64,000 nucleotides of DNA, taken from assembly GCA_011049425.1 (NCBI GenBank), contig DSBM01000119.1:24622-88621 (forward strand), given 5' to 3'. The notes under the pieces are model-generated. The model had not been told where the DNA came from, searched no databases, and was given only the letters and a program-made list of their open reading frames with translations. This DNA comes from Candidatus Aminicenantes bacterium. GTDB lineage: Bacteria; Acidobacteriota; Aminicenantia; UBA2199. Position 1 is the first letter of the stretch, and each line of letters begins with the position of its first letter. The translations under genes were made by a program, and so were the position numbers. Below are positions 33,646 through 52,332 of this stretch, in pieces.

Positions 33646-33978
33646 GGAAACACCTCACGGTTTGGGGGAATTAGAGAGGAGGAATGGACGTGCATATGAC
33701 TGAAAGCGGCCCTCAGTCCCGGAAACGGCGAATGGTTGGGAAATGGTGCATGCTCTCAACAGGGAATTGCGAAAAAAGACAGGTGTGAGACGGTACGGCT
33801 TCCGTCTCCGTGGTGGGGCTCTCCTTGGCGATCATGGCTCCTCCAAGTCCGGGATTGTAACACAATCACGGGGTGAAAAAAACGCATTCACGGGACTTTT
33901 TTCATTTTTGACCGGCAGCTGGATTCCCCGGTTGACTTGGCCGGGGGGTTTGCCTACCATATACATAGAGAGGCGGAC

Positions 33979-35472: not shown

Positions 35473-36575
35473 GTCCGGATCGGCGCGAATTCATGCGCTT
35501 CAGCCTGGCGGCCGGAGCCGGACTGGTTCTGGGTGCGGGCAAACTGGATGCGGTACCGGTGCCGCCGCTCGGGGTGCGTCGCGCCATGTTTTTCGAGAGT
35601 CTTTCCCGCGACCGAGTGGTATGTAACCTGTGTCCCAATGAATGTGTGCTGGGCAAAGGGGAACGGGGTGTGTGCCGGGTTCGGGAAAACCGCGACGGTC
35701 GCCTTGTGACACTGGTTTATGGTACTCCCTGTTCCGCCAACATTGATCCCATCGAAAAGAAACCCCTGTTTCACTTCCATCCCGGAAGCAACGCTTTTTC
35801 CATCGCCACCGCGGGCTGCAACATGTCCTGCCGCTTCTGCCAGAACTGGGAGATTTCACAACAGGGGCCGGAAAAGGTCCGCTCAATCAAACTGCCCCCG
35901 GCTGCCGTGGTGAAGCTGGCCCAAGAGCGCGGTTGCACCAGCGTGGCGCACACGTACGGTGAACCGGTGGTGTTTTACGAGTACATGCTCGACTGCGCCC
36001 GGGAGGGCCGTCGCGCCGGGATTCCCAACGTGATGATTTCCAACGGCTATATCCGGGAAGCGCCCATGCGCGAGTTGTGCCGCAGCCTGGGCGCGGTCAA
36101 GATCGATCTCAAGGCTTTCACCGATAAGTTTTACCACGAGATCTGCGGCGCCACCCTGGCGCCGGTGTTGCATACCTTGGAAGTGATAAAAGATGAGGGG
36201 GTCTGGCTGGAGATCGTGGTACTCCTGATTCCCGGTCTCAACGACTCGGTAACGGATATCCGCGAGATGACGCGCTGGATCGTAGACAAGCTGGGGCCCC
36301 GGGTACCCCTGCATTTTTCCCGGTTTTTTCCCACCTATCGCATGCGCAACATCCCGCCCACGCCTCCGGCCATCCTGGAGCGGGCGCGCCGCACCGCTCG
36401 GGAAGTCGGCCTGGAATACGTGTACGTGGGCAACCTGATGTCAAAAGCCCGCCATACCCGTTGCCCGGAATGTAATACAGAGCTGATCCACCGCGAGGGC
36501 TTCTCGGCGCGCGTGACCGGACTGAAGGGCAATCGTTGCGGCAACTGCGGCCACGAGATCCCCGGGATCTTTTAG
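35469..36575 (+). CDS. AmmeMemoRadiSam system radical SAM enzyme with a twin-arginine-type N-terminus
   Basis: The ATG overlaps the upstream TGA. SPDRREFMRFSLAAGAGLVLGAG. CNMSCRFCQN (CX3CX2C at 35817-35840). C-terminal CPECNTEL...CGNCGH. Confidence 0.85.
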   Translation: MSPDRREFMRFSLAAGAGLVLGAGKLDAVPVPPLGVRRAMFFESLSRDRVVCNLCPNECVLGKGERGVCRVRENRDGRLVTLVYGTPCSANIDPIEKKPLFHFHPGSNAFSIATAGCNMSCRFCQNWEISQQGPEKVRSIKLPPAAVVKLAQERGCTSVAHTYGEPVVFYEYMLDCAREGRRAGIPNVMISNGYIREAPMRELCRSLGAVKIDLKAFTDKFYHEICGATLAPVLHTLEVIKDEGVWLEIVVLLIPGLNDSVTDIREMTRWIVDKLGPRVPLHFSRFFPTYRMRNIPPTPPAILERARRTAREVGLEYVYVGNLMSKARHTRCPECNTELIHREGFSARVTGLKGNRCGNCGHEIPGIF

Positions 36576-36586
36576 CCACTGGCTTT

Positions 36587-36735
36587 GTTAAAGTTGAAAA
36601 GTTGAAAAGTTGAAGAGGGAAGAAGTAGAAAGAGTTGAGGGCGGAACAGAAGTAGGGGCGAAAAATTTTTCGCCCGTGTCACCTGCCTCCTGCCACCTTC
36701 TTTCAACTTTCCACTTTTCACTTTCAACTTTTCAC
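36587..36735. repeat. ~150-bp palindromic intergenic element, copy D (probable bidirectional terminator)
   Basis: Left arm GTTAAAGTTGAAAAGTTGAAAAGTTGAAGAG. Right arm TTTCAACTTTCCACTTTTCACTTTCAACTTTTCAC. Central perfect palindrome GGGCGAAAAATTTTTCGCCC (36656-36675). Lies between convergent genes. Confidence 0.7.
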
Positions 36736-39700
36736 TTATTTCTTGAGGATTGCAGGAATGTCTCGTCCAGGATCTCGTCCAGGGTTTCGACCAGGCGGGC
36801 GGCGTCCGTCTTATTGAAACACAGGGGCGGCTTGATCTTGAGCACGTTGTGCAGCGGCCCGTCCACGCTGATGAGGATGCCCAGGTCGCGCATGCGCTCG
36901 CTGATGTAGGCGGCTTCGCGGTCCGCCGGCTCAAACGTTTCCCGGTCGCGCGCCAGTTCGATTCCGACAAAAAGGCCGCGGCCACGTACATCCGCCACCA
37001 GGTGATGGCGGGATTTCAAGGCTTCAAGGTCCGCTTTCAGCCGGTTTCCCACCCGCCGGGCGTGGTCCTGCAGGTCTTCGTCGCGGATCACGTCCAGTAC
37101 GGCCAGGCCGGCAGCGCAGGAGACGGGATTGCCCCCGAATGTGTTGAAATACTCCATGCCCGTGCGAAAAGCGTCCGCCACCGCGCGCGTGGTCACAACC
37201 GCGCCCAGGGGGTGACCGTTGCCCATGGGTTTGCCCATGGTGACGATGTCGGGGAGCGCGTCCTGGGTCTGAAATCCCCAGAAAGCGTCGCCCACGCGGC
37301 CGAATCCCACCTGGACCTCGTCGGCGATGGCCACTCCGCCGGCGGCACGCACGGCGGCAAAGGCCCGGGCCAGGAACTCTTCGGGCAGCACGATCTGGCC
37401 CGCGCACCCGGGCAGGGGTTCAACCATGAACGCCGCCGCCGGAGTACCTGCGTTCTCCAGCATCCGCAACATTTCGTGGAATTTCTGTGCGTAACGTTCC
37501 CCGCTGTCGGGCCGACCACGATACTCGCCGCGCAGGGGGTCGGGCAGGGGAAACACGTGGGTATGCGGCGGCCGGCCCGTGCCCCCTTTGCCGTTGAATT
37601 TGTAGGGACTGATTTTGATCAAGCCGGCCAGGTTGCCGTGGTACGCGGCGTCCAGCACCACCATGTCGCGACGGCCCGTGGCCATCCGCGCCAGGCGCAG
37701 GGCCAGGTCGTTGGCCTCGCTGCCGCTGTTGGTGAAAAAGCACACATCCAGCGGATCCGGCAGGGTTGCCGCCAGGCGCTGGGCATAGTTGACCAGCAGC
37801 GGGTGCAGGTAGCGGGTGTTGGTATTGAGAATGGCCGCCTGGGTGGCCACCGCTTCCACCACCCGGGGGTGGCAATGGCCCACGTGGGGAACGTTGTTGA
37901 CCGCGTCCAGAAACGTGTTGCCGTCACGGTCGTACATGAACTGCATGAAACCCCGAACCATGGTCAGGGGGCGGCGGTAAGAGATGCTGAGGGCGGGGTT
38001 GAGCAGGCGTTGGCGCGAGGACAGGATCTCTTCCGGTGTCATGGCGGGTGCGGGGAAGGCTTTTGCGGGGATATTCAGTATGATGTTGGGGTCGGGACAG
38101 ATCTCCAGCCAGGCTTCTTTTTCGTCCGGGGCGGCGACTCCGGGAAAATTTTCTTTGTATCCAAGCAAATCCGTCATCACCTGGAAATGCAGGTGGGGTG
38201 GCCAGCCGCCGTTCTCATCCACATCACCCAAGCTCACAAAAGCCTCACCGCGAGCGACGGGTGTGCCGGGCTTCAAGGCGGCGATCGATTCCCTTGCCAA
38301 ATGGCCGTAAAGGGTAAAGAAGGGCGGAGCGCCGGCCGGGGTGTGTTGCAGAATCACAGTGGGTCCGTAATCTCCGGCAAACGCGTTATCCACGGCAGTG
38401 ACCACACGGCCATCCAGGGGAGCAAAGACCGCGGTTCCGGCCTCGTCAAACAGATCCATGCCCAGGTGGATGGTGCGCGGCCCGGCGCACGAGAGAAACT
38501 GGGGTGTGGTGTAGCAGAGCCGCGCTTCGTTGTAACGCCCCACAGCCATGCCTTCTTCGGCTGGAACCTGCCAGCCTGCGGCCGCTCCGTTCCCGGGCGG
38601 CCGCGCGTGGCGTCCGGCCACGCTCAAATCCAAAACGCGGACGGGGCCGTCCAAACCCTGCATCACCGCGGCGAAATCTTTGCGCTTTTCGGCCAGCCAG
38701 CGCTGAATCTCTACGGCTGTGGGGGTTGCGGCCAGGCCGCAGGCTTTGCGGATGCGCGCGCGCGCCGCCAGAAAATTGGTCTCGGTCAACTGTAGAAAGG
38801 TATCTGAAACAGCTTGCCTGGAAATCTGGTGGTAGGTGTTTTCCGGTTCTTCGCACTGTCGGCGTGCGGCCATCACCAGGCTGGCGGCCAGGCGCAGGCG
38901 CACCAGGCAAAAGATCTGGTCGATTTCCTTTTCCAGCAGGGGAAACACTTGGTGATAACCCCGCGCCAGGGCGGCAATGGCCGCCACGGGATCCTGCTGG
39001 TGCAGACAGGCATAGGCCGCGGCAATGGCGGGCTCACAAACACGATAGCAGTACACGAGGTCGCCGAAATCAACCAACCCGGCAATGCCGGGTGCCCCGG
39101 AAATATTTGTTTGCACCAGAACGTTGTGGTCGTTGGCGTCGTTGTGAATAACCTGCTTGGGACAGCCGGCCAGGGCGGGAATGATTCGTTCCCGGCCGTC
39201 CGCCAGTACTTCCGACACCTGGCTTTGCAAATGCCTGTCTTTCAGGGTGTGCACATGGACAGAGAGATCGGGAGCACGGCAGAGATCCCAGACCAGTTCC
39301 CGTTTTTGCGCACCATGGGCAAAGTCCGCCAGGCCTTGGTTTAAATGTGCCAAAAACCTCCCCAGCCGCGATGCCAGGCGCTGGGACCGGGGGCGGTAAT
39401 CCGCCATAAGCGTTCCCGGCAACCAGGAGAGCAGGTGGATCCAAACAGTTCCTTCGTTTGGTGATTCAATCGCAACCAGGCGTTTTCCTGTAAGGGAATA
39501 CTGAACCCGGGGAACCGGAAGCTCCGGATCCGCTTCTGCCAGGTGGTCCAGGGCGCTGATGCGGAAATCCAGGACCTCTGCTCTGGATCCGGGAGGGGAG
39601 ATCTTGAAAAGATAATCGCCCCCGTCGGCACGGATGCGGAAGTTGACGTCTACCTCTCCGTGCAGGGGCAGGGCCGTGGCGGCGATTCCGTAATGCGACC

Positions 39701-39755
39701 TCACCAGGTCCGCAACTCTTTCAGTCGTCCAGGGGTTTTGCCTGTTGCCGCTCAT
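36732..39755 (-). CDS. three-domain protein: APH/hydroxylysine-kinase-like phosphotransferase + M23 peptidase-like domain + class III (PLP) aminotransferase/phospho-lyase-like domain
   Basis: Kinase: [21 protein letters not shown]23: [11 protein letters not shown]...[15 protein letters not shown]: [50 protein letters not shown]; the ATG overlaps the stop of the upstream CBS-GHKL gene. Confidence 0.85.
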
Positions 39756-40762
39756 GGAATCCTCCTTGGATCGGGGTCACGCGGACATTCCACTGAAACG
39801 TTCAGCTCTTGGGCTGTCCCGGAGGGCGATTCCGCCGCGGGCAGAAAAAAAACGATTTCAACCTGGGTGCCCTTCTTTTTTTCCGCCAGGATGACCAGCT
39901 TGTCGGCGAACCGTTTCATGTTGGGAATGCCCATGCCGGCTCCGAAACCGAATTCCCGCACATAGTCGGATGCCGTGGAGAATCCTTCGGTCATGGCTTG
40001 GTCCAGGTCCTCGATGCCGATGCCCATATCGGTGACCCGCACGATGATGCGGTCCTTTTTGATAAAGCAGTAGATGTCGCCTTTGCTGCAACTGTGGATC
40101 ACCACGTTGGTTTCCGCTTCGTAGGTGGCGATGCCCACGCGCCGGGCGATCTCCTGATCGACGCCCTTTTTTTTCAGGAACTGCTTCAACAGGGCCGCCC
40201 CGGTTCCGGCCGAAGTGATGTCGGAATTGTCGATGGTGTAGTGGAATTCGGCTTCGTCCCCGCGCAAACGCTCGCCCGTGATCAGGGAGAACTCCTGGTC
40301 CAGCGTGGTTTTGCGCTTGGTGTCGTGGATGTAGATGAGGTTGAACTTCTCCAGGATGCCGTGCAGGATGTCTTCGCGGGCGACAATGCCCCGCAGGCGG
40401 TTGTTTTCATCCACTACCGGAAAGCGCCCCAGTTTGAAGGTGCTGAACTTGTCCACGATGTCGGGCAGGTTATCTTCCGGTCGCAGGCTGACCACGTCCC
40501 GGGTCATGACTTTTTTAAGGGGTTCGTTGATGCGACCGTACTCCAGGGCATTGATGATATCCTCGATGCTGATGATGCCCACCACAATGCCGTTGCGGTC
40601 CACGATGGGGATTCCGGAGATCTTTTTGATCTTCATCATCTCTTTGGCGCGGGCCACCTTTTTGTCCGGGGTCAGGCTCACGGGGTTGCGGGTCATGATG
40701 TCCGCGGCGGTCAGGTCGCGGAATATGTCGACGTATTTCTTGAGGTTCTTTTCTTCAGCCAT
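39752..40762 (-). CDS. CBS-pair protein fused to a GHKL (anti-sigma-kinase-like) ATPase domain
   Basis: Two CBS motifs (IMTRNPVSL...GIPIVDRNGIVVGIISIEDI; VMTRDVVSL...RFPVVDENNRLRGIVARED). C-terminus: ATYEAETNVVIH, VTDMGIGI, GFGAGMG. Confidence 0.8.
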   Translation of the reverse strand: MAEEKNLKKYVDIFRDLTAADIMTRNPVSLTPDKKVARAKEMMKIKKISGIPIVDRNGIVVGIISIEDIINALEYGRINEPLKKVMTRDVVSLRPEDNLPDIVDKFSTFKLGRFPVVDENNRLRGIVAREDILHGILEKFNLIYIHDTKRKTTLDQEFSLITGERLRGDEAEFHYTIDNSDITSAGTGAALLKQFLKKKGVDQEIARRVGIATYEAETNVVIHSCSKGDIYCFIKKDRIIVRVTDMGIGIEDLDQAMTEGFSTASDYVREFGFGAGMGIPNMKRFADKLVILAEKKKGTQVEIVFFLPAAESPSGTAQELNVSVECPRDPDPRRIP

Positions 40763-41102
40763 CGATTCCCTTGAAACCGGCGGTATAAAGGCGGCCGCAG
40801 GCGGAAAACATGAAGAAAGGCGTACGGATGAGCAGGAAGTCGTTCATGCGGGCCAGTTCAATGGTGGCGGGAGGAATGTTCTTGTTCTGGATCACCACCA
40901 GACCGAGGAGCTCGGTCACCATCCCGGTCCGCACCGATTGCGGGGAAGTATGGGCCGTGAGCACCACCATGCCCGGTTTGGCCAGGGCCAGGATATCACT
41001 CATCATGTCTCCGGCGCCGATGGATTGCACTTCTTCGTCCAAGCGGCTTTCACCGCTGATCACCTCTCCTTTCAGGATCTTGACCAGTTCTCGGGCTGTC
41101 AT
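40755..41102 (-). CDS. DRTGG domain protein
   Basis: MTARELVKILKGEVISG...GAGDMMSDILALAKPGMVVLT...TGMVTELLGLVVIQNKNIPP. GGAGAG RBS. 8-nt overlap with the downstream CBS-GHKL gene. Confidence 0.72.
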   Translation of the reverse strand: MTARELVKILKGEVISGESRLDEEVQSIGAGDMMSDILALAKPGMVVLTAHTSPQSVRTGMVTELLGLVVIQNKNIPPATIELARMNDFLLIRTPFFMFSACGRLYTAGFKGIDG

Positions 41103-41171
41103 GTGGATCTCTCCTGCCCGGAGTGTAACCCAGAGGCCCATCCAAGTCAACGCCGTCCCCAAGGTAATCTC

Positions 41172-41200
41172 TTGCGCTCCAGGCGGTTCCGGGGTATAGT
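41172..41200 (+). promoter_or_regulatory. sigma70-like promoter for the PHP-GHKL genes
   Basis: TTGCGC (41172-41177), 17-nt spacer, TATAGT (41195-41200), in the 130-bp divergent region. Confidence 0.35.
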
Positions 41201-41232
41201 GGGGCTGCCGCTTGCGGCGGCGGAGAGGAAAC

Positions 41233-41982
41233 GTGATCGTGACTGCGGACCTGCACATTCACTCGGCCTTGTCTCCCTGCGGCAGCCTGGAGATGTCTCC
41301 CCGCGGCGTAGTTGTCCGCGCCCGTGATCTGGGGCTGGACATGATCGCGGTCACGGATCACAATAGCATGGCCAATGTGGACGCCACCGTCGAGGCCGGC
41401 AACAGGGATGGGGTGGTGGTGATCCCCGGCATGGAAGCCCAGACAGCGGAGGGCGTCCACGTACTCTGTTACTTCCCGGATTGCGAAATCGCGCAGGCCT
41501 GTTACCGGGAAATCTATCCCCATCTTCCGGACATCGCCAACAATGCGGATTTCTTTGGAGACCAGGTAATTGTGGATATCGATGATAATGTGACCGGCTT
41601 TGAGCCCCGGGTGCTGCTCAATTCGCTGGACCTGTCGATAGACGAGCTGGTGTTGCGCGTGCGCGCGATCGGGGGGGAAGTAATCCCCGCCCACGTGGAG
41701 AGCAACGGGTTTGGTCTTTTGCCCCACCTGGGAATGGTGCCGCCCCACCTGGATCTGTCCGTCTTGGAGATCGCCTGGCCGCATACCCGCGAAGAGGTGT
41801 TGCGCGAACACCCGGACCTGGCATCATTTTCCCTGGTCTCCCACAGTGATGCCCATTACCTCCGGGACATCGGACGCGCCGCCATGCGGATCGAAATCGC
41901 GGAATGCAGGTTTTCCGCTTTGTTTGCGGCTTATCGCCGGGGATCAGGGAAAGTCCTTTACCGGCAAAGAGAAGACTCGTGA
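41233..41982 (+). CDS. PHP-domain metal-dependent phosphoesterase
   Basis: ADLHIHSALSPCG, IAVTDHNS, VHVLCYF, IPAHVE, VSHSDAH. GTG start 5 nt after GGAGAGG; the track ORF starts at a TTG at 41212. Confidence 0.8.
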   Translation: MIVTADLHIHSALSPCGSLEMSPRGVVVRARDLGLDMIAVTDHNSMANVDATVEAGNRDGVVVIPGMEAQTAEGVHVLCYFPDCEIAQACYREIYPHLPDIANNADFFGDQVIVDIDDNVTGFEPRVLLNSLDLSIDELVLRVRAIGGEVIPAHVESNGFGLLPHLGMVPPHLDLSVLEIAWPHTREEVLREHPDLASFSLVSHSDAHYLRDIGRAAMRIEIAECRFSALFAAYRRGSGKVLYRQREDS

Positions 41983-42524
41983 TCGCAGACCTCAGTTTCC
42001 ACATCGTGGACGTGGTCCAGAACAGTGTCACCGCCGGAGCGGACCGGGTTGAGATCACCATCGAGGTGTCCCGTCGCAACGATCGCATCCGCCTAAAGAT
42101 CAGTGATAACGGCAGGGGAATGGACTCCGAAACCGCACAGCTTGTCCAGGATCCATTCTACACCACCAAGTCGGGCAAAAAGGTGGGCCTGGGGATTCCC
42201 CTGATGAAGGAAACCGCTCTGCAGTGCGACGGGGCTTTCCGATTAACCAGCAAATTGGGCAAAGGAACCAGCATCCGCGCGGAGTACCGGTTGACCCACA
42301 TCGACACCCCGCCCATGGGGCCGGTGGACGAGACGGTGTTTCAACTGATTGCCGCCACTCCCGATGTCGACATGGTACTTGCCTGGATCACCGACGCCGG
42401 GCGTTTCGCAGTGTCCACCCATGAAATTCGCGAGCAGATCGGCGAAATGTCGCTGACTCATCCGGCTGTCCTGTCTTTTCTGCGGAAGTACCTGCGTGAA
42501 AATCTGGAACGCTTGCCCATGTAG
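41979..42524 (+). CDS. stand-alone GHKL/histidine-kinase-like ATPase domain protein (no DHp/His domain)
   Basis: VVQNSVTAGA (N box), ISDNGRGMD (G1), KKVGLGIPL (G2), GKGTSIRAEY. GTG start overlaps the PHP stop (GTGA). Confidence 0.75.
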   Translation: MIADLSFHIVDVVQNSVTAGADRVEITIEVSRRNDRIRLKISDNGRGMDSETAQLVQDPFYTTKSGKKVGLGIPLMKETALQCDGAFRLTSKLGKGTSIRAEYRLTHIDTPPMGPVDETVFQLIAATPDVDMVLAWITDAGRFAVSTHEIREQIGEMSLTHPAVLSFLRKYLRENLERLPM

Positions 42525-42578
42525 AAAATGCGGGAGGAATTTTCGGGGCAAAGAAGCGCTTTTTTGTCGATCACGGGG

Positions 42579-42607
42579 TTGACTTTTCAGACGGGTTGTC
42601 TTAAGAT
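42579..42607 (+). promoter_or_regulatory. sigma70-like promoter for the DRTGG-NuoEF-FDH operon
   Basis: TTGACT (42579-42584), 17-nt spacer, TAAGAT (42602-42607). Confidence 0.4.
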
Positions 42608-42646
42608 TCGATACGATCTATATTGTTAATTGCAAAACAGATAATT

Positions 42647-42991
42647 ATGAAGTTATCGGGAATTGTAAACGGTTTGGAGTGTGAGGCGCTGGTCCAGGGT
42701 CCGGATGCGGACGTCCGTGAAGGTTATGCTTCAGACCTGTTGTCGGATGTGATGGCCAACTGCCCTGAAGGTGCCGTATGGCTGACCCTGCAACGCCACC
42801 TGAATGTCATCGCCGTGGCGCAGTTGAAGCGCATCACCGCCATTGTGGTCACCAACGGCGGTCGTCCGGACGAGGCAGTCCTGGAACGGGCCCGTGATGA
42901 AGGTCTGACTGTCCTGACAACCGATTTGGATACGTTTTCAGCAGCGGGCCGGATTCACCGCATGCTTTTCCCCGAACCGTCGTTGAGTTGA
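42647..42991 (+). CDS. DRTGG domain protein (second copy)
   Basis: MKLSGIVNGLECEALV...GYASDLLSDVMANCPEGAVWLT...ITAIVVTNGGRPD. Same pattern as 40755-41102. Confidence 0.72.
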   Translation: MKLSGIVNGLECEALVQGPDADVREGYASDLLSDVMANCPEGAVWLTLQRHLNVIAVAQLKRITAIVVTNGGRPDEAVLERARDEGLTVLTTDLDTFSAAGRIHRMLFPEPSLS

Positions 42992-43102
42992 CGGGGCGCC
43001 TGACGGTCTGCCGATCCTCCCGATACCGGACGTTCAAATGACATCGTCGCGGGTTTTGCGGAAAACGGCTTTCGGGATGCCGCAGAACCAGAGAAGGAGG
43101 AC

Positions 43103-43606
43103 ATGATGCTTCAGACTCGAGCACACACCCCGGAGAATCCGCAATTCCGGCAGCTCCGGGAGTTTATCCATTCCCACCGCAATATCCCCGGCCCGCTGAT
43201 ACTGGTGCTGCAAAGAGCCCAGGAACTTTTTGGTTATCTGCCCAGCGAAGTTCAGGGGTTCGTGGCCAAAGAAATGAATCTGCCCCAATCCGAAATATTC
43301 AGTGTGGTGACATTTTATAATTTCTTCCGCACCCAGCCCATCGGTGACCACATCATAAATGTTTGCCTGGGTACGGCCTGCCACGTAAAAGGGGCTCAGA
43401 GTTTGCTCGATGCCCTGGCAGATGAATTAAAGATACCCGTGGGTGGAACCACGAAAGACGGCATTTTCACCTTGTCGACAGCTCGTTGTTTCGGTGCCTG
43501 TGGTCTGGCCCCTGCCATGATGATCGATGAGGAAGTGTTCGGGAAACTGAATCCCGACAAGGGCCGCAAAGTGATCCGCGAATTCCGCAAAAACTCTAAG
43601 AAATAG
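43103..43606 (+). CDS. NuoE/HydC-type [2Fe-2S] subunit (module 1)
   Basis: VTFYNFF, VCLGTACHVKG, ARCFGACGLAPAMMID. Confidence 0.9.
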   Translation: MMLQTRAHTPENPQFRQLREFIHSHRNIPGPLILVLQRAQELFGYLPSEVQGFVAKEMNLPQSEIFSVVTFYNFFRTQPIGDHIINVCLGTACHVKGAQSLLDALADELKIPVGGTTKDGIFTLSTARCFGACGLAPAMMIDEEVFGKLNPDKGRKVIREFRKNSKK

Positions 43607-43634
43607 CGTATAAGCATACAATCAAGGAGGCACG

Positions 43635-43997
43635 ATGAAGCTTGAAGATCTGAAAAAGATACGGGAGAAGCATCAGAAGGATATGCTTCTTCGTGATGGG
43701 GACGCCCGTGTCCGCGTGGTAGTGGGAATGGGCACTTCCGGCATCGCCGCCGGCGCCAGGGAGACGCTCCGGGCGTTCCTCGAGGAGATCGAGAAACGCA
43801 ACATCACAGGTGTCATTGTCACCCAGGCGGGTGAGCGGGGTCTCAGTTCTCACGAACCCATCGTCACGGTATCTGAGAAGGACAAACCCGGTATCGTGTA
43901 CGGAAATGTCACTGCTGAAGTGGCCCGTAAGATCGTGGCAGAGCATATTGTGAATGGGAGTCCCTTGTCTGATTACGTTCTCGAAGTTACGGAATGA
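43635..43997 (+). CDS. thioredoxin-like ferredoxin-fold protein (HndB/HydD-like) with no cysteines
   Basis: VVVGMGTSGIAAGA...VTQAGERGLSSHEPIVTV has the fold pattern of [2Fe-2S] Trx-like ferredoxins, but the whole 120-aa protein has no Cys. Confidence 0.72.
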   Translation: MKLEDLKKIREKHQKDMLLRDGDARVRVVVGMGTSGIAAGARETLRAFLEEIEKRNITGVIVTQAGERGLSSHEPIVTVSEKDKPGIVYGNVTAEVARKIVAEHIVNGSPLSDYVLEVTE

Positions 43998-44031
43998 TCC
44001 GCCGCCGGCGGATCCTTGAGACGAGGCTTTT

Positions 44032-45822
44032 ATGAAAAAGAGACTGGATGTACTGATTTGCGGGGGCGCTGCATGCATCGCGTCACACAGCCATGATTTC
44101 AAGAACCGGCTCATCAAGGTTGTCAAGGCTCATGAACTGGAAGAAGAGATAAACATCATTGAAACCGGTTGCATGGGACCCTGCGAACTGGGGCCCGTCA
44201 TGGTGGTTTATCCGGATGGTGCCTTTTACATCCGCCTCAAGCCGGAATATGCCGAGCGCATTGTAGAGGAACATTTTCTCAAGGGTCGTCCGGTAGAGGA
44301 GTGGTTGTGGCAGGTTCCGGAAGCCCGTAAAATCGTGGAGGAAAAACGCCAGATCCCTTTTTTTGAGAAACAATGCAAAGTTGTTCTCAAGAACTGTGGC
44401 CGTATTGATCCGGAAAATCTCAACGAGTACATCGGCAATGACGGTTACCAGGCTTTGGCACGCGGCCTGACGGAGATGACCCCGGATGCGGTGATCGAAG
44501 CGGTGACCGCATCGGGACTGCGCGGGCGCGGCGGCGCGGGATTTCCCACAGGATTAAAGTGGAAGCTGGCCCGCCGGGCCGCCGGGGATATCAAGTACGT
44601 GGTCTGCAACGCGGATGAAGGCGATCCCGGCGCGTTCATGGACCGGGCCATCCTGGAAGGCGATCCGCACAGCGTGATCGAAGGCATGATAATTGCCGGA
44701 TATGCCGTGGGCGCTTCCCAGGGGTTCGTGTATATCCGGGCTGAGTATCCTCTGGCGGTACGGCGTTTGCACCGCGCCTTGGAGCAGGCCCGCGAAGCCG
44801 GCCTGTTGGGTAAGGATATCCTGGAGAGCGGATTTTCCTTTGATCTGGAAATCCGCACCGGTGCCGGTGCTTTTGTGTGTGGGGAAGAAACGGCCCTGAT
44901 GGCTTCCGTCGAAGGCCATCGGGGAATGCCCAGGCCCAAGCCGCCTTATCCTTCTGAACAGGGATTATGGGGTAAGCCCACTGTGATCAACAACGTGGAA
45001 ACCCTGGCCAACTTGCGTCATATCGTTATCAATGGCGCTGAGTGGTTTGCCGCCATGGGAACGGCCAAGAGCAAGGGCACCAAGGTGTTCGCCCTTTCGG
45101 GCAACGTAAACAACACCGGCCTGGTGGAAGTCCCCATGGGCATCACCCTGCGCGAGATCGTCTATGAAGTGGGCGGTGGCATTCCCGGCGACAAAGCGCT
45201 CAAGGCCGTTCAGACCGGCGGTCCATCCGGGGGATGCATTCCCGCCGAACACCTCGATACTCCCATCGATTACGAATCCCTGGCGGAACTGGGATCGATC
45301 ATGGGATCCGGCGGGTTGATCGTACTGGACGAAGACAACTGCATGGTGAACATGGCCAAGTTTTTTCTGGAATTCTGCGTGGAAGAATCCTGCGGCCAGT
45401 GTGTTCCGTGCCGGGTCGGTTTAAAGCAGATGCACCGGATCCTGCAGTGGATTGCTGAAGGAAAGGGTGAAACCAAAGATCTGGAGCAGTTGGAACAGAT
45501 GGCTGAAACCGTCAAGGCCACGAGTTTGTGCGGATTGGGACAATCCGCCCCCAACCCCGTACTCTCTACCCTGAAGTACTTCCGCCATGAATACGAGGCC
45601 CACATCCAGGACAAACGTTGTCCCGCTCTGGTGTGCAAGGATCTGACTGCCTACACGGTCCTGGCGGACAAGTGTACGGGATGTACCGCCTGCGCGCGCA
45701 AGTGTCCGGTCGACGCCATCAGTGGAGAAATCAAACAAATCCATTTCATTGATCAGGAGATCTGCATCCATTGCGGTGCCTGTTACGAGGCATGCAAGTT
45801 TGACGCGATTCAACGTCGGTAA
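44032..45822 (+). CDS. NuoF/HydB-type flavoprotein subunit (module 1): N-terminal Trx-like [2Fe-2S], FMN/NAD(H) site, C-terminal 2x[4Fe-4S]
   Basis: LICGGAACIA...TGCMGPCELGP; GLRGRGGAGFPTGLKW; ESCGQCVPCRVG; CTGCTACARKCP; CIHCGACYEACK. Confidence 0.92.
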   Translation: MKKRLDVLICGGAACIASHSHDFKNRLIKVVKAHELEEEINIIETGCMGPCELGPVMVVYPDGAFYIRLKPEYAERIVEEHFLKGRPVEEWLWQVPEARKIVEEKRQIPFFEKQCKVVLKNCGRIDPENLNEYIGNDGYQALARGLTEMTPDAVIEAVTASGLRGRGGAGFPTGLKWKLARRAAGDIKYVVCNADEGDPGAFMDRAILEGDPHSVIEGMIIAGYAVGASQGFVYIRAEYPLAVRRLHRALEQAREAGLLGKDILESGFSFDLEIRTGAGAFVCGEETALMASVEGHRGMPRPKPPYPSEQGLWGKPTVINNVETLANLRHIVINGAEWFAAMGTAKSKGTKVFALSGNVNNTGLVEVPMGITLREIVYEVGGGIPGDKALKAVQTGGPSGGCIPAEHLDTPIDYESLAELGSIMGSGGLIVLDEDNCMVNMAKFFLEFCVEESCGQCVPCRVGLKQMHRILQWIAEGKGETKDLEQLEQMAETVKATSLCGLGQSAPNPVLSTLKYFRHEYEAHIQDKRCPALVCKDLTAYTVLADKCTGCTACARKCPVDAISGEIKQIHFIDQEICIHCGACYEACKFDAIQRR

Positions 45823-45843
45823 CGAGAAAACCAGATGAGGTGA

Positions 45844-46305
45844 ATGATGACGAAAAGAGACGTAATGGAGAGGTATCCCAAGTCGGGGGACAACCTCATC
45901 AGCATCCTGCACGACCTGCAGGACAACAATGAGTGGAATTACTTGTCCGGGGAGGATCTGGCGGCCGCGGCTGATTATCTGCAACTTCCGCACAGTTTTG
46001 TTCATGGCGTCGCGACTTTCTACACCATGTTCAGCCTGGAACCCCGGGGAAAACACGTGATCCGGGTGTGCCAGTCTCCGCCCTGTCATTTGATGGGTGC
46101 GGGCACGATTTCATCTGAACTCGAAAAAATCCTGGGAGTCGGATTCGGTGAGACTACACCGGATCGCCTTTTTACCCTGGAGATGACTTCCTGTCTGGGT
46201 GTATGCGGCGTGGCTCCGGCCGTTATGATCAACGACCAGGTATATGGAAACCTGAACGCTGAACGGCTCGCGGAAATAATCGATGCCAAAAGGAGGGAGA
46301 AGTGA
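45844..46305 (+). CDS. NuoE/FdsG-type [2Fe-2S] subunit (module 2)
   Basis: ATFYTMF, VCQSPPCHLMG, TSCLGVCGVAPAVMIN. Confidence 0.9.
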   Translation: MMTKRDVMERYPKSGDNLISILHDLQDNNEWNYLSGEDLAAAADYLQLPHSFVHGVATFYTMFSLEPRGKHVIRVCQSPPCHLMGAGTISSELEKILGVGFGETTPDRLFTLEMTSCLGVCGVAPAVMINDQVYGNLNAERLAEIIDAKRREK

Positions 46306-47900
46306 GTATCTACAGGGCTCATATTATGCTCCCCGTTGACGAGGGGACGATCCAGGCAGGCGTTTTTGAAATCAAGCGGGAACTGCAGGCGTTGTTGCAA
46401 AAAGAAAACCTGGATCGGGAAATAAAAATTCTCGAGGCCGGCACCATCGGCGTGATCGGCAAAGGCGTGCAGTTGGTGGTATATCCGGACAACGTGACCT
46501 ATTTCAATGTCACCCCCGAAAGCCTGAAAGAGATCGTTGCTGAACATATCGTGAAAGGCCGGGTGGCCAAGAAGCTGGAACATTCGGTCGCGGAAAAGAA
46601 GCTCGAACCGGAAGGTCAAAAATCGATCGGGCTGACCCGGGCACAACAACGCATCGTGCTGAACAAGTGCTGGAAAATCGATCCCGAAAGTATCGACGAT
46701 GCGCTGGCATCCGGAGGGTACCGCGGCATAGAGAAGATTTTCAGCCGGAACATCACTCCCGATCAGGTCATTCAAGAAATAACCGATTCCGGCTTGCGCG
46801 GCCGTGGCGGTGCTGGATTCCCGACCGGCCTGAAATGGACGTTTACCCGCAAAGCCGAGGGAACGGAAAAGTTCATGATCTGCAACGCGGATGAAGGAGA
46901 ACCGGGAACTTTCAAAGATCGACTGATCATGGAAGGTGATCCGCATAAATTGATTGAGGGTATGATGATCGCGGGATATGCGATCGGTGCCGGCAAGGGA
47001 TTCATCTATATCCGGGGAGAATACCAGCTCTCCATTGACCGCATCCAGAAGGCCATAGAACAGGCCCGCGCATACAACCTGCTTGGTGAACGGATTCTGG
47101 ATACTGATTTCTCTTTTGACCTCGAGATCAAGAAAGGCGCCGGGGCGTATGTGTGCGGCGAGGAAACATCGTTGATCGATTCGCTGGAAGGGAAAAGGGG
47201 ATATCCGAGGATCAAGCCGCCTTTCCCGGCCAATAGAGGGTTGTGGCAGAAACCCACCTGTGTCAATAACGTGGAAACATTGGCCAATGTGCCGGAAATC
47301 ATTTACGAAGGAGCCGAATGGTTCCGCAAGTTCGGTACGGAAAAATCAACCGGGACCAAGGTGTTTACCATCCTGGGCCACGTGGAGTTCCCCGGCCTGA
47401 TCGAGACTGAAATGGGAACACCGTTGCGGGAGATTATCTTTTCCTACGGTGGCGGCATAAAAGGCGGGAAGCGGTTCAAGGCGGCACTGGTCGGCGGCGC
47501 GGCAGGGGTGTTTCTTTCCGACAAGCTGCTGGACGTGCCCATGGATTTCGAGAGCCTGAAAGAGAATGCCGCCGTGCTGGGTTCCGGGGCCATTTTGGTG
47601 ATGAACGAGGATGCCGATATGGTGGACATGCTGTCATCCGTTCTCCAGTTTTTCGCACATGAATCCTGCGGACAATGTGCGCCCTGCCGGGTTGGAACCA
47701 GTCAATTGTACGGCTTGATATCCCGCATCCAGAGCGGAGAGGGACGGGAAGAGGACATCGACCAGATGGTGACTATTTCGGAAGCGCTGTTCCAAACGTC
47801 CTTGTGCCCCCTGGGCCAATCCCTGATCATGCCGGTAAAAAGCGCCGTAGAGAATTTCAGACAAGATTTTCTGAATAGAATCAACCATTCAGATAATTAG
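46302..47900 (+). CDS. NuoF/FdsB-type flavoprotein subunit (module 2): Cys-free N-terminal Trx-like domain, no C-terminal ferredoxin domain
   Basis: GLRGRGGAGFPTGLKW; ESCGQCAPCRVG. GTG start overlaps the upstream TGA. Confidence 0.92.
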   Translation: MSIYRAHIMLPVDEGTIQAGVFEIKRELQALLQKENLDREIKILEAGTIGVIGKGVQLVVYPDNVTYFNVTPESLKEIVAEHIVKGRVAKKLEHSVAEKKLEPEGQKSIGLTRAQQRIVLNKCWKIDPESIDDALASGGYRGIEKIFSRNITPDQVIQEITDSGLRGRGGAGFPTGLKWTFTRKAEGTEKFMICNADEGEPGTFKDRLIMEGDPHKLIEGMMIAGYAIGAGKGFIYIRGEYQLSIDRIQKAIEQARAYNLLGERILDTDFSFDLEIKKGAGAYVCGEETSLIDSLEGKRGYPRIKPPFPANRGLWQKPTCVNNVETLANVPEIIYEGAEWFRKFGTEKSTGTKVFTILGHVEFPGLIETEMGTPLREIIFSYGGGIKGGKRFKAALVGGAAGVFLSDKLLDVPMDFESLKENAAVLGSGAILVMNEDADMVDMLSSVLQFFAHESCGQCAPCRVGTSQLYGLISRIQSGEGREEDIDQMVTISEALFQTSLCPLGQSLIMPVKSAVENFRQDFLNRINHSDN

Positions 47901-47914
47901 GCAAGGAGGAAAAC

Positions 47915-50623: not shown

Positions 50624-50641
50624 TCCAAAAGGAGGAGACGC

Positions 50642-51472: not shown

Positions 51473-51490
51473 GTATCGGGGGAACTGAAA

Positions 51491-51524
51491 AGCGGGAAAG
51501 CCTCAGGCTTTCCCGCTTTTTTTT
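51491..51524 (+). terminator. Rho-independent terminator after focA
   Basis: AGCGGGAAAGCC-TCA-GGCTTTCCCGCT, a 12-bp perfect stem followed by T8. Confidence 0.85.
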
Positions 51525-51551
51525 CCATTGTGAACACAAGCGAGGCGAAAC

Positions 51552-52280: not shown

Positions 52281-52332
52281 ACAGCGGCACGGTCTGCCGG
52301 GCCCCTGTTCATGGCTGCACATCTGCTGCAGG

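Follow-up and report, generated by a model that had tools for sequence, protein, structure and literature searches.

Parts of the gene set described here are already known from the literature, namely Tte0891, 'HisK', HydD and a kinase beside the M2e hydrogenases. A published NiFe-HydABCSL operon of A. mobile also has 'HisK' and 'HydD' (PMC8880783), and a 'histidine/serine kinase' adjoining M2e sensory hydrogenases has been noted (PMC3561251, PMC8163306). HydD is retained in the purified C. subterraneus enzyme, (HydABCD)2 (PMC4694547), whereas purification of the A. mobile enzyme does not bring it along (PMC8880783), as would be expected of a dissociable subunit. As late as 2026, group D hydrogenases were described as having unidentified partners (PMC13104023). 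As an initial annotation of the present locus had stated, the function of these genes was never explained: the literature names the parts and assigns no function to them, and DRTGG and PHP genes are never mentioned.

Here we analyze a 64,000-nucleotide stretch of a Candidatus Aminicenantes genome (the window), in which the initial annotation described five small genes flanking a redox operon. We consider the chances about even that these five genes and a HydD-like gene represent, in this genome, a widespread accessory set of NuoE/NuoF-type ('HydABC/Bfu-like') soluble NAD(H)/ferredoxin-linked oxidoreductases and, jointly, that they form an ATP-dependent sensing and kinase/phosphatase module tuning the redox enzyme post-translationally.

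Gene layout and domain content of the locus

Table 1. Features of the locus and of the adjoining redox genes (positions in the window).
Feature	Position	Strand	Details
cbsK1, CBS pair fused to SpoIIAB/RsbW-type GHKL ATPase/Ser-kinase-like domain	39752-40762	-	336 aa
DRTGG1, single-domain DRTGG protein	40755-41102	-	115 aa
Divergent intergenic region, DRTGG1 to PHP	41103-41232		130 bp, read from sequence
PHP-family metal-dependent phosphoesterase	41233-41982	+	249 aa, GTG start
Small stand-alone GHKL ATPase ('sGHKL', Tte0891/'HisK' type)	41979-42524	+	181 aa
Gap upstream of DRTGG2	42525-42646		122 bp
DRTGG2, single-domain DRTGG protein, first of the Nuo/FDH genes	42647-42991	+	114 aa
NuoE/HydC-type [2Fe-2S] subunit	43103-43606	+	Pfam 2Fe-2S_thioredx 9e-46
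HydD-like protein, Cys-free	43635-43997	+	120 aa; aligned with NuoF N-terminal domain
NuoF/HydB-type flavoprotein	44032-45822	+	Pfam Complex1_51K 1e-48, NADH_4Fe-4S 2e-35, Fer4 x2; NCBIfam nuoF_fam 3e-155
Second NuoE (NuoE2)	45844-46305	+	ORF listing, NCBIfam search
Second NuoF (NuoF2)	46302-47900	+	ORF listing, NCBIfam search
FdhA, formate dehydrogenase alpha subunit	47915-50623	+	902 aa; NCBIfam TIGR01591
FocA	50642-51472		downstream of FdhA
FdhD	51552-52280		downstream of FocA
Rex	54379-55050		in window

The five genes, the GTGA start/stop overlap of the PHP and small GHKL genes, the divergent gap and all motifs quoted in the initial annotation (ETNVVIH, DMGIGI, GFGAGMG, HIHS, DHNS, SHSDAH, QNSVTAGA, DNGRGM and GLGIPL) are present in the sequence and its translations, and a 79%-identical relative has gene calls of matching length (115, 249, 181 and 114 aa). 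DRTGG1 and cbsK1 overlap by 8 nt, amounting to translational coupling; this left pair is divergent in the window, and an unrelated 1007-aa gene comes next and overlaps it. On its minus strand the divergent region holds a single sigma-70-like match (41150-41122), at consensus level only, and neither an inverted repeat nor an Rfam match was found in it. A promoter had also been proposed for the gap before DRTGG2, where two overlapping sigma-70-like matches do occur, TTGACT-17-TAAGAT (42579-42607) and TTGTCT-17-TATATT (42596-42624); as consensus matches only, they leave that promoter a candidate.

The assigned domains hold in Pfam searches, with DRTGG1 of the window as the weak point. The cbsK1 protein matches a CBS pair (3e-30) and HATPase_c_2 (1.5e-10), and its residues 209-303 match SpoIIAB at 1.6e-5 in a PDB sequence search. 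Its ATP-site residues E215, N219, D245, G247, G249 and G272-G278 are invariant among 62 homologues. The motif G-h-h-S/T-x-x-D is kept in both CBS domains family-wide; in the window protein, Ala replaces the S/T of the second. DRTGG1 of the window scores 19 bits against a gathering score of 25 (DRTGG 1e-3, PucR 5.6e-5), whereas its orthologues pass that score, one at 2.4e-8, and in a Thermoanaerobacterium locus (L019) DRTGG1 is fused to GHKL. DRTGG2 is recognized at 1.7e-9 and aligns in register with DRTGG1, the two sharing an invariant Asp and Ser (D32/S35 in DRTGG1, D30/S33 in DRTGG2). In the AF2 model of DRTGG2 (pLDDT 95.3), S33 caps the N-terminus of helix 32-38. Foldseek aligns this model with the DRTGG domains of AF1212 (2ioj, TM 0.83) and CBS-PPase (TM 0.71), followed by the N-terminal domains of MurE/MurF, LpxD and HprK. 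The N-terminal domains of MurE/MurF and LpxD bind UDP or uridine, and it is these that the DRTGG fold resembles rather than phospho-acceptors.

The PHP protein (Pfam PHP 7e-9, PHP_C 5.5e-4) carries the full set of metal ligands (H8, H10, D42, H43, E68, E73, H76, H154, D206 and H208), invariant in 71 homologues, as is S14-P15-C16. Its nearest solved structures, 3e0f and the RNase AM 7ug9, are both weak matches. It is closest to TrpH/YciV-type nucleotide phosphoesterases (3',5'-bisphosphate nucleotidase, RNase AM) and not to known protein phosphatases, which argues against its proposed role as the phosphatase of a kinase/phosphatase pair. Natural fusions join PHP to the small GHKL (L067, P0131 and P0229).

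The small GHKL ATPase belongs to a family of 847 clusters at E<=1e-30 and matches HATPase_c (5e-16) and also HATPase_c_3 in Pfam; a profile comparison finds the KinB catalytic domain at 5e-15. A Bergerat fold is followed by a C-terminal alpha/beta domain of ~70 aa (AF2 model, pLDDT 91.7), and a His-phosphotransfer (phospho-acceptor) domain is absent from the protein. Residues N15, D43, G45, G47, P59, F60, G70, G72, D109 and G114 are invariant. In Foldseek comparisons it matches MutL and TopoVI-B over ~190-200 columns (TMq 0.5-0.57), with GyrB also aligned, whereas histidine-kinase CA domains match over ~100 columns only; the whole-length fold fits MutL/TopoVI-B-type ATPases about as well as kinases. 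On these models the protein may be an ATP-driven switch or chaperone instead of a kinase.

Overlooked earlier, the HydD-like gene is part of the conserved set and lies directly downstream of the small GHKL gene in most loci. Its product has no Pfam match and reaches only a below-cut-off NCBIfam match to 2Fe-2S ferredoxin (3.5e-9). Across the family, 27 of 62 proteins are Cys-free, and the first two Cys positions hold an invariant Met and Gly. The window protein itself has zero Cys. Alignment relates it, as a Cys-free paralogue, to the thioredoxin-like NuoF/HydB N-terminal domain. The first NuoF combines N-terminal [2Fe-2S]-like and C-terminal 2x[4Fe-4S] domains, the make-up described for bifurcating HydB; the second lacks the C-terminal ferredoxin domain, and its N-terminal domain is without Cys. 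FdhA scores 897.8 bits against TIGR01591 (cut-off 666) and begins with a NuoG/HydA-like Fe-S domain. Signatures of [FeFe] and [NiFe] hydrogenases are absent from all ORFs of the window, in agreement with the earlier claim that it holds no hydrogenase.

A conserved gene order with an exchangeable sensor

Loci were seeded on the small GHKL alone and are the best 80 of at least 595 matches, so the sample is not unbiased. One gene order recurs in these best 80 of at least 595, spanning at least nine phylum-level groups: DRTGG1, SpoIIAB-like GHKL, a group D/M2e sensory hydrogenase where present, DRTGG2, PHP, in some cases NuoE, small GHKL, HydD-like, NuoF and the catalytic subunit. This order (D1-K1-(S)-D2-P-(E)-K2-d-F-A) is found in Bacillota, 'Deltaproteobacteria'/Syntrophorhabdaceae, Bacteroidota, Chloroflexota, WOR-3, Caldisericota, Aquificota and Aminicenantes. 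Because one order is repeated across many phyla, the arrangement is far beyond chance and the set is no local accident. Among the 58 loci with enough flank, PHP is present in 56, all five genes in 47, NuoF in 48 and the HydD-like gene in 46. Two sub-units are apparent, an upstream cassette (DRTGG1, SpoIIAB-like GHKL plus sensor, DRTGG2 and PHP) and an embedded pair (small GHKL and HydD-like).

The catalytic partner varies. By its motifs it is an [FeFe] HydA in most loci; it is a Mo-formate dehydrogenase in the window and in L001, L002, L026 and L078, and a [NiFe] large subunit in L010, L059, L071 and L075 and, by clustering, in L031 and L053. This variation supports the set belonging with the NuoEF-type core whatever the catalytic partner, as the initial annotation had argued; its placing of relatives in or beside hydABC clusters is likewise borne out, the mention of Thermotogae apart, no locus of that group being among the best 80 of at least 595. 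Where a locus has a second NuoE-NuoF-HydA set, that set comes without a small GHKL, and several loci retain E-K2-d-F-A alone. In an Aminicenantes/Acidobacteria clade, PHP and the small GHKL lie next to a cNMP-binding protein, and no Nuo genes occur up to 10 kb away; NuoF was not found within 10 kb in four further loci (L044, L056, L063 and L067). No other gene family occurs in more than 8 of the 80 loci, across which no STAS, PP2C, sigma factor, response regulator, cyclase or synthetase recurs. Among DNA-binding neighbours Rex alone recurs, in 7 loci with the window among them, and the gene set has no defence-system match.

The sensor on the first GHKL is swappable, being either a group D (M2e) sensory [FeFe] hydrogenase encoded by its own gene or a CBS pair fused to the N-terminus of the GHKL. 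CBS-fused forms occur in 11 loci, HydS-D in 36, neither in 3 and both in none (Fisher 1e-8 with shared ancestry ignored, the CBS form being found in about four lineages), and M2e signatures are present in 41 of 41 HydS-like proteins. This mutual exclusion is new here. The window has the CBS form, in which the CBS pair stands in for the group D sensory hydrogenase, a relationship the initial annotation overlooked.

Candidate mechanism and alternative explanations

In the proposed post-translational module, the input would be a metabolic signal, sensed either by HydS, in the case of H2, or by the CBS pair and possibly the DRTGG domains, in the case of an adenosine-type nucleotide (energy or redox charge). 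ATP-dependent action of both GHKL proteins, opposed by the PHP phosphoesterase, would then change how active the redox enzyme is or how it is assembled, control being exerted post-translationally and not transcriptionally. The likeliest contact point would be the HydD-like protein, which duplicates the NuoF/HydB N-terminal domain without its cluster and could attach to the core as a regulatory subunit. Kinase activity, kinase substrates and PHP specificity are all predictions. The invariant ATP-site residues of both GHKLs and the invariant PHP metal ligands suggest catalytic competence, and the natural fusions of DRTGG1 to GHKL and of PHP to the small GHKL, with the overlapping start/stop codons in the window, count in favor as physical coupling. 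Against the module count the Aminicenantes/Acidobacteria clade without nearby Nuo genes, the four loci without NuoF, the MutL/TopoVI-B-like fold of the small GHKL and its missing phospho-acceptor domain, the affinity of PHP to nucleotide phosphoesterases and the MurE/MurF- and LpxD-like fold of DRTGG. A linked transcription factor is an improbable output, since STAS proteins, sigma factors and response regulators do not recur, Rex stands alone, and the small GHKL gene lies amid structural genes. A classical partner switch is not supported, nor is the partner-switch-like reading of the initial annotation: the loci lack STAS, PP2C or sigma factors, the DRTGG fold is not STAS-like (Foldseek), and the small GHKL has no phospho-acceptor domain.

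The same proteins could instead serve maturation, assembly or cofactor care, with the small GHKL as a MutL/Hsp90-like ATP-driven clamp or chaperone and PHP as a nucleotide phosphoesterase that acts on a cofactor precursor or clears a nucleotide that is damaged or inhibitory, both being required for building or maintaining the flavin/Fe-S core and not for its regulation. Whole-length alignment of the small GHKL to the MutL N-terminal domain, TopoVI-B and GyrB, its HATPase_c_3 match, its gene's place amid structural genes and the nearest relatives of PHP all speak for this role, as does the N-terminal D-V-V-Q-N-S-V-T-A-G-A, which resembles MutL motif I. Hard to fit are the classical sensor modules of the set (group D sensory hydrogenase, CBS pair and, in one clade, the cNMP-binding protein), the SpoIIAB-type kinase domain, the second NuoE-NuoF-HydA sets without a small GHKL of their own and the loci with E-K2-d-F-A alone; moreover, Thermotoga HydABC is active in E. 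coli with HydEFG alone. We regard maturation as unlikely, though the authors of the A. mobile study wrote of 'maturation and/or regulation' (PMC8880783). Transcriptional control of the redox operon through an unlinked target is a doubtful alternative, in which the SpoIIAB-like GHKL would be a true anti-sigma or anti-regulator kinase sequestering a sigma factor or regulator whose gene lies elsewhere, the DRTGG proteins its antagonists and PHP the resetting phosphatase. An upstream sensory hydrogenase and kinase were indeed proposed earlier to regulate bifurcating hydrogenase genes (PMC3561251, PMC8163306), the first GHKL is closest to SpoIIAB, its homologues are named 'anti-sigma regulatory factor' in databases, and the DRTGG paralogues share an invariant Ser at a helix N-cap. 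Set against this are the non-STAS-like DRTGG fold, the lack of recurrent sigma factor, STAS or PP2C in the 80 loci, the embedding of small GHKL and HydD within the structural operon and the nature of the sole recurrent regulator, Rex, a dedicated NADH-sensing repressor.

A nucleotide second-messenger circuit would have PHP degrade a signal that GHKL helps to make or sense and that CBS, DRTGG and cNMP-binding proteins read, the link to the redox enzyme being indirect. The TrpH/YciV type of PHP, the nucleotide-binding folds of all three reader domains (nucleotide binding by CBS being familiar from the CBS-pyrophosphatase literature) and the PHP-GHKL-cNMP trio standing alone in Aminicenantes are consistent with it. 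We know of no GHKL protein that synthesizes a nucleotide messenger, however, the loci show no recurrent cyclase or synthetase, and so tight an order with NuoE/HydD/NuoF favours a direct link, making such a circuit improbable. That unrelated genes adjoin the operon by chance in this genome might be read from the divergent left pair and its unrelated overlapping neighbour, but the set reappears, its order kept, in dozens of loci and many phyla, which already contradicts this; the lack of a defence-system match also counts against it, and we give it almost no weight.

For the proposed post-translational tuning module, the closest functional analogy is a kinase/phosphatase pair acting on a metabolic enzyme, such as PDK/PDP or HprK/P, rather than two-component systems or classical partner switches.

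A conserved accessory gene set tied to a NuoEF-type core

The ORF listing and the sequence confirm the five genes that the initial annotation described within 39752-42991. Pfam supports the two CBS domains and the HATPase_c_2, PHP, HATPase_c and DRTGG assignments of these genes; DRTGG1 itself scores below the Pfam threshold, and its assignment is secured by orthologues and by alignment with DRTGG2. None of the five proteins reaches the cut-off of any NCBIfam model. Downstream of DRTGG2 lie, in order, NuoE, a 120-aa HydD-like protein, NuoF (596 aa), a second NuoE and NuoF, FdhA, FocA and FdhD, with DRTGG2 and NuoE separating the small stand-alone GHKL protein from the HydD-like gene. A C-terminal 2x[4Fe-4S] domain is present in the first NuoF and absent from the second, so that of the two flavoproteins of the operon one is HydB-like and the other shorter. 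In the second NuoF, the N-terminal domain has a thioredoxin-like [2Fe-2S] fold that, like HydD, has lost all cluster cysteines. Hydrogenase signatures are absent from the window ORFs, again as first described.

Coordinates of the features of the window
Feature	Position	Strand	Remarks
RibD and RibBA (DHBP synthase/GTP cyclohydrolase II), riboflavin genes	25769-28654	+	~13 kb upstream of the flavoprotein operon
Memo-AMMECR1 fusion, then radical SAM protein	33937-36575	+	'AmmeMemoRadiSam' trio, fused form
Fusion of APH-type phosphotransferase, peptidase M23 domain and class-III aminotransferase	36732-39755	-	1007 aa; ATG overlaps stop of CBS-GHKL gene (ATGA)
Two CBS domains with C-terminal GHKL (GHKL1)	39752-40762	leftward	336 aa
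DRTGG1	40755-41102	leftward	115 aa; 8-nt overlap with start of the 336-aa CBS-GHKL gene
Divergent gap	41103-41232		130 bp, between DRTGG1 and PHP
PHP phosphoesterase	41233-41982	rightward	GTG start
PHP residues S14-P15-C16	41272-41280		directly after the H-x-H metal motif
Small stand-alone GHKL	41979-42524	rightward	181 aa; start overlaps PHP stop (GTGA)
Gap between small GHKL and DRTGG2			122 bp
DRTGG2	42647-42991	rightward	
HydD-like protein	43635-43997	+	120 aa, Cys-free
N-terminal domain of second NuoF	46302-46630	+	
FdhA			902 aa; downstream of second NuoF; passes curated formate dehydrogenase model TIGR01591
Rex-like repressor (Put_DNA-bind_N + CoA_binding)	54379-55050	+	2 kb past the formate dehydrogenase operon

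The 1007-aa fusion gene also adjoins the module, across a 60-bp gap, in L081 and L082, two relatives of 79% identity, and is missing from other loci; the fused AmmeMemoRadiSam trio is kept in the same two relatives. The proximity of the riboflavin genes to the flavoprotein operon is probably coincidental.

A search of one genome per species, seeded on the small GHKL alignment only, confirmed at least 595 matches; the 80 best of these, with 10-kb flanks, were studied as loci (given L numbers here). Their ORFs were labelled using the window proteins, H-cluster and [NiFe] motifs, and two Pfam-checked hydrogenase-like proteins. Record titles place the loci in Bacillota/Clostridia, 'Deltaproteobacteria', Syntrophorhabdaceae, Bacteroidota and Chloroflexota, and further in WOR-3, Caldisericota, Aquificota, Aminicenantes/Acidobacteria and Chrysiogenales. 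The recurring order is DRTGG1, GHKL1, a hydrogenase-like protein, DRTGG2, PHP, (NuoE), small GHKL, HydD-like, NuoF and a catalytic subunit. Counted over the 58 of the best 80 loci with enough flank, PHP is present in 56/58, all five genes in 47/58, NuoF within 10 kb in 48/58, and NuoE and the HydD-like gene in 46/58 each. In nearly all loci HydD follows directly on the small GHKL.

Several loci (L035, L039, L043, L045, L069) hold only NuoE, small GHKL, HydD, NuoF and HydA, from which we conclude that the gene set comprises two sub-units. The upstream cassette is inverted en bloc in five others (L025, L041, L046, L049, L058). In the window lineage (the window, L001-L003 and L081/L082), the CBS-GHKL/DRTGG1 pair runs divergently, with DRTGG2 relocated to behind the small GHKL. 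Gene fusions join DRTGG1 to GHKL1 in a Thermoanaerobacterium isolate (L019, ~25-aa linker) and PHP to the small GHKL in L067 and in the database clusters P0131 and P0229; stop/start overlaps in the window join these same two pairs.

The linkage has exceptions. Nine closely related Aminicenantes/Acidobacteria loci contain PHP, small GHKL and a cNMP-binding protein only, with no Nuo genes; NuoF is absent within 10 kb from four further loci (L044, L056, L063, L067); and in two Fusibacter loci (L055, L066) NuoE-HydD-NuoF-HydA lies ~3-6 kb upstream of the cassette, not after it. In eight of the Nuo-less loci (L007, L008, L011, L014, L016, L017, L020 and L037, the last labelled Chrysiogenales), PHP and small GHKL are followed by a 159-aa protein consisting solely of a cNMP-binding domain (for example, L016 9262-11094), and the copy in L023 is partial, at a contig end. 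A ~570-aa protein lies upstream of PHP in most Nuo-less loci; its sole match is a weak glycosyltransferase-like one, and it is probably unrelated.

What ends the loci varies. For most, the final subunit is an [FeFe] HydA that carries the three H-cluster motifs in full. A formate dehydrogenase ends the window, L001, L002, L026 and L078, and a NuoG-like subunit followed by an [NiFe] large subunit ends L010, L059, L071 and L075 and, by clustering, also L031 and L053. This variety agrees with the NiFe-HydABCSL operon of Acetomicrobium mobile, which holds a 'HisK' and a 'HydD' that are both absent from the purified enzyme (PMC8880783, PMC9304861). Because the partner varies and the A. mobile operon agrees, the proposal that the gene set travels with the NuoEF-type core and not with the hydrogenase subunit is supported, with [FeFe], formate dehydrogenase and [NiFe] partners all occurring. 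The first NuoF is ~1030 aa in many loci (1020-1050 in L002, L003, L010, L026, L031 and L071), ~430 aa longer than that of the window. In L067, a Peptostreptococcaceae MAG that combines the PHP-small GHKL fusion with no NuoF within 10 kb, the formate dehydrogenase appears as two adjacent same-strand ORFs (331 + 542 aa; 2-2630), which could reflect an in-frame TGA for selenocysteine.

Putative sensors and transducers of the module

HydS, the hydrogenase-like member of the canonical set, belongs to the putative sensory [FeFe] hydrogenases of group D (M2e). It spans 400-470 aa and comprises Pfam Fe_hyd_lg_C and a C-terminal FeS domain. All 41 copies carry a C-terminal Cx2Cx4Cx14-18C motif and lack T-S-C-C-P, and S/T-P-C-x-x-K replaces M-P-C-x-x-K in 37/41, traits that fit the published description of TamHydS (PMC8163306). 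The window ORFs contain no HydS-like protein, and a CBS pair is fused to GHKL1 instead. Across the loci, HydS accompanies a bare GHKL1 of ~140 aa, and HydS is absent wherever GHKL1 is CBS-fused: HydS occurs in 36 loci, the CBS fusion in 11, neither in 3 and both in 0 (Fisher 1e-8, uncorrected for shared ancestry). The CBS form is found in Chloroflexota, the window lineage and one genome each of Aminicenantes (L002) and Peptococcales (L056). Most of its partners are formate dehydrogenase or [NiFe] enzymes, with one [FeFe] case (L003). From this distribution we take the CBS pair and HydS to be inputs that are interchangeable on a single transducer.

The presumed transducer, GHKL1, is by sequence of the SpoIIAB/RsbW kind. 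It matches PF13581 (HATPase_c_2, the Ser-kinase/anti-sigma-type domain) at 1.5e-10, SpoIIAB structures of the anti-sigma F factor in the PDB at 1.6e-5, and TIGR01925 at 1e-14, under the cut-off of that model. Its E-x-x-x-N, D-x-G-x-G and G-F-G-A-G-M-G boxes are invariant among 62 homologues. The associated CBS domains maintain family-wide a G-h-h-S/T-x-x-D motif, which we take to be typical of adenosine-ligand sites. A search with the GHKL1 domain gave 27 proteins, with no new architectures among them.

The small GHKL belongs to a different GHKL branch. Its profile matches the catalytic (CA) domains of histidine kinases (KinB, 5e-15; also ZraS and WalK), with BCKDK a weak tail match (1e-3), but its sequence opens with the N box and lacks a DHp/HisKA domain with a phospho-acceptor His. 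Nor does a response regulator recur across the loci, as a two-component reading would lead one to expect. The AF2 model (pLDDT 91.7) shows a Bergerat fold and a C-terminal 70-aa small alpha/beta domain. Foldseek aligns it whole-length with the MutL N-terminal domain, TopoVI-B and GyrB (TMq 0.5-0.57), covering ~190-200 columns for MutL and TopoVI-B but at an rmsd of 4-8 A; kinase CA domains cover just ~100 columns. The family is large, with 847 clusters at 50% identity (E<=1e-30).

All PHP metal ligands (H8, H10, D42, H43, E68, E73, H76, H154, D206 and H208) are invariant; both the ATP sites and the metal site of the module are intact. The best solved relatives, both weak, are 3e0f (6.6e-5) and RNase AM (7ug9, 7e-3); 3e0f/3o0f is a putative metal-dependent phosphoesterase, presumably a bisphosphate nucleotidase-like enzyme. 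The S-P-C triplet is invariant in 71/71 homologues, at a place where S-D-G is usual in TrpH-type PHP enzymes; its cysteine may serve as a further metal ligand or as a redox-sensitive thiol.

DRTGG1 and DRTGG2 have just two invariant residues in common, the Asp and Ser of s-D-L-L-S-D-V. In the AF2 model of DRTGG2 (pLDDT 95.3) the Ser caps a helix, and the D-x-x-S at a helix N-cap resembles SpoIIAA. The fold, however, is plain DRTGG (Foldseek: 2ioj, TM 0.83), related to N-terminal domains of MurE/MurF, LpxD and HprK and not to STAS; those of MurE/MurF and LpxD are UDP/uridine-binding. A STAS-like phospho-acceptor role of DRTGG is not supported by the modelled fold, with which phosphorylation of DRTGG as such would still be compatible. 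Finally, the HydD-like protein is paralogous to the N-terminal, thioredoxin-like domain of NuoF/HydB, and invariant Met and Gly occupy the first two cluster-ligand positions across its family.

A possible control of the NuoEF core and its rivals

The module would sense H2 via HydS or an adenosine-type nucleotide via the CBS pair, perhaps with DRTGG. The SpoIIAB-like GHKL would be driven by these swappable sensors, with group D HydS responding to H2 and the CBS pair to adenylate or redox nucleotides. The GHKLs, acting ATP-dependently and opposed by PHP, would alter the state of the enzyme post-translationally, with the PHP/small GHKL pair setting the state of the Cys-free HydD. Contact with the enzyme is likely to run through HydD, which copies the HydB N-terminal domain and, as a decoy, might dock on the core and gate electron flow. 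HydD was a subunit in one purified enzyme (PMC4694547) and missing from another (PMC8880783). That this whole chain, from sensors to GHKL1 and from PHP/small GHKL to HydD gating, constitutes the first dedicated post-translational control for bifurcating HydABC/Bfu-type enzymes is a tentative proposal, which we regard as possible rather than probable.

Part of the initial interpretation survives and part does not. Linkage to NuoEF stands, since the catalytic subunit varies; a classical partner switch falls, since its defining parts are absent: STAS, PP2C and sigma factor genes are all non-recurrent among the neighbours of the loci, and the DRTGG fold is not STAS. Clustering of all unlabelled neighbours of the 80 loci yields no extra family in more than 8 loci and no recurring maturases, and the families that reach 8 loci are confined to particular lineages (Aminicenantes neighbours, His-tRNA synthetase). 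Roles in maturation of the enzyme or in a nucleotide signal are less probable alternatives; they draw on the MutL-like fold that the small GHKL shows over its whole length and on the affinities of PHP with nucleotide phosphoesterases. The sensor modules and the SpoIIAB-type domain lead us to prefer post-translational control to maturation.

Transcriptional control is likewise less preferred than the post-translational kind: the module has no linked DNA-binding or sigma partner, and its small GHKL is encoded in the midst of the structural genes. Rex is the sole recurrent DNA-binding neighbour, in 7 loci including the window; in the six others (L015, L018, L019, L029, L041, L056) it adjoins the module. 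Neither TTGTGAANNNNTTCACAA (3 mismatches) nor TTGTNANNNNNNTNACAA (1 mismatch) was found as a Rex-box-like site in the window, the divergent gap contains no operator-like inverted repeats, and a riboswitch or other RNA in the gaps finds no Rfam match across 36000-53000 (E<=0.1). Two other identities were rejected: anti-phage defence, for which PADLOC matches are marginal (MzaB 1.3e-3, PDC-M49A 8.6e-3), and the hfsABCD operon of Thermoanaerobacterium, a different cluster with a PAS-type HydS, a Ser phosphatase and HydA2.

HydABC/Bfu-type enzymes govern the NADH/ferredoxin/H2/formate balance in fermenters, syntrophs and acetogens. Interaction partners of group D hydrogenases were still being sought in a 2026 paper (PMC13104023), and post-translational control, if true, would name these long-sought signalling partners; the candidates are DRTGG1 and the SpoIIAB-like GHKL, whose genes adjoin and overlap and in one genus have fused. 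Comparative evidence indicates that formate dehydrogenases and [NiFe] enzymes use this machinery too, and the exchange of CBS for HydS is a natural experiment in which sensor is separated from transducer. With the full set defined, its independence from the catalytic subunit and the sensor swap make an open hydrogenase and bifurcation question directly testable. Judging from published locus tags, tractable hosts apparently with the canonical set include C. thermocellum, Caldicellulosiruptor, Thermoanaerobacter and Thermoanaerobacterium.

Comparison with known systems

Like SpoIIAB/RsbW systems, the window module has a HATPase_c_2-type GHKL with E-x-x-x-N, D-x-G-x-G and G-x-G-x-G boxes, paired with a small co-encoded invariant-Ser protein and a phosphoesterase; unlike them, it lacks a STAS antagonist, a PP2C phosphatase and a sigma factor, its small partner having a DRTGG fold and its phosphoesterase being PHP. 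CBS pairs and DRTGG folds also occur together in family II CBS-pyrophosphatases, where they are adenine-nucleotide-responsive regulators and form a single polypeptide, the DRTGG being an insertion, with a DHH/DHHA2 catalytic part. In the window, however, they lie on separate genes, the CBS pair is fused to GHKL and no DHH pyrophosphatase is present; PRK14869 models match the window proteins only partially and below threshold. The window PHP shares with TrpH/YciV the N-terminal D-L-H-x-H-S...T-D-H motifs and metal ligands but scores far under the family cut-offs (34.4 bits against 400 for NF041577; 25.9 against 375 for the RNase RNM model). PDK and BCKDK, GHKL protein kinases that together with their phosphatases control dehydrogenase complexes, are analogous in function only, in that one NAD-linked redox complex has its own GHKL ATP-binding protein and phosphoesterase; the small GHKL lacks the N-terminal helical domain, and the sequence relationship is limited to the Bergerat fold.

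Two of the closest systems are hydrogenase neighbourhoods. In Caldanaerobacter subterraneus, Tte0891 lies in hydC-tte0891-hydD-hydB-hydA and was carried as a 'hypothetical protein' in a synthetic operon from which the enzyme was purified as (HydABCD)2 (PMC4694547). Together with 'HisK' and 'HydD' of A. mobile, it is a case of a ~180-aa GHKL and a ~120-aa HydD among NuoE/NuoF-type genes, outside the catalytic subunits and with no function assigned (PMC4694547, PMC8880783, PMC9304861). The C. subterraneus order (NuoE, small GHKL, HydD-like, NuoF, catalytic subunit) recurs in many loci, including the Thermoanaerobacterium locus L019; the window differs in its formate dehydrogenase partner and in having the small GHKL apart from HydD. 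The window small GHKL is equated with Tte0891 and the A. mobile protein on the basis of gene order and of relatives in related genera.

By 2012 a kinase-like gene had been noticed beside those M2e hydrogenases that lie upstream of bifurcating ones (PMC3561251, citing Calusinska 2010), and a 2020 paper remarks on it anew (PMC8163306). The neighbourhood of TamHydS, with its flanking 'histidine kinase-like ATPase', is the same as the canonical module of DRTGG1, GHKL, group D HydS, DRTGG2 and PHP, then hydABC, but these papers name neither DRTGG nor PHP genes, and one labels a flanking gene 'AraC family regulator' (PMC8163306, PMC3561251). Full-text literature searches found no paper tying DRTGG or PHP genes to these operons and no relevant phosphoproteome data on them. 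Set against the HydABC/Bfu accessory set, the window has the stand-alone ~180-aa GHKL upstream of NuoE/NuoF, the HydD-like gene and all four cassette genes (DRTGG1, SpoIIAB-like GHKL, DRTGG2 and PHP), with FdhA in place of a hydrogenase as catalytic partner and, unlike the TamHydS neighbourhood, a GHKL-fused CBS pair in place of HydS. The window is the CBS-sensor, formate dehydrogenase-partner form of a neighbourhood already known but functionally unexplained.
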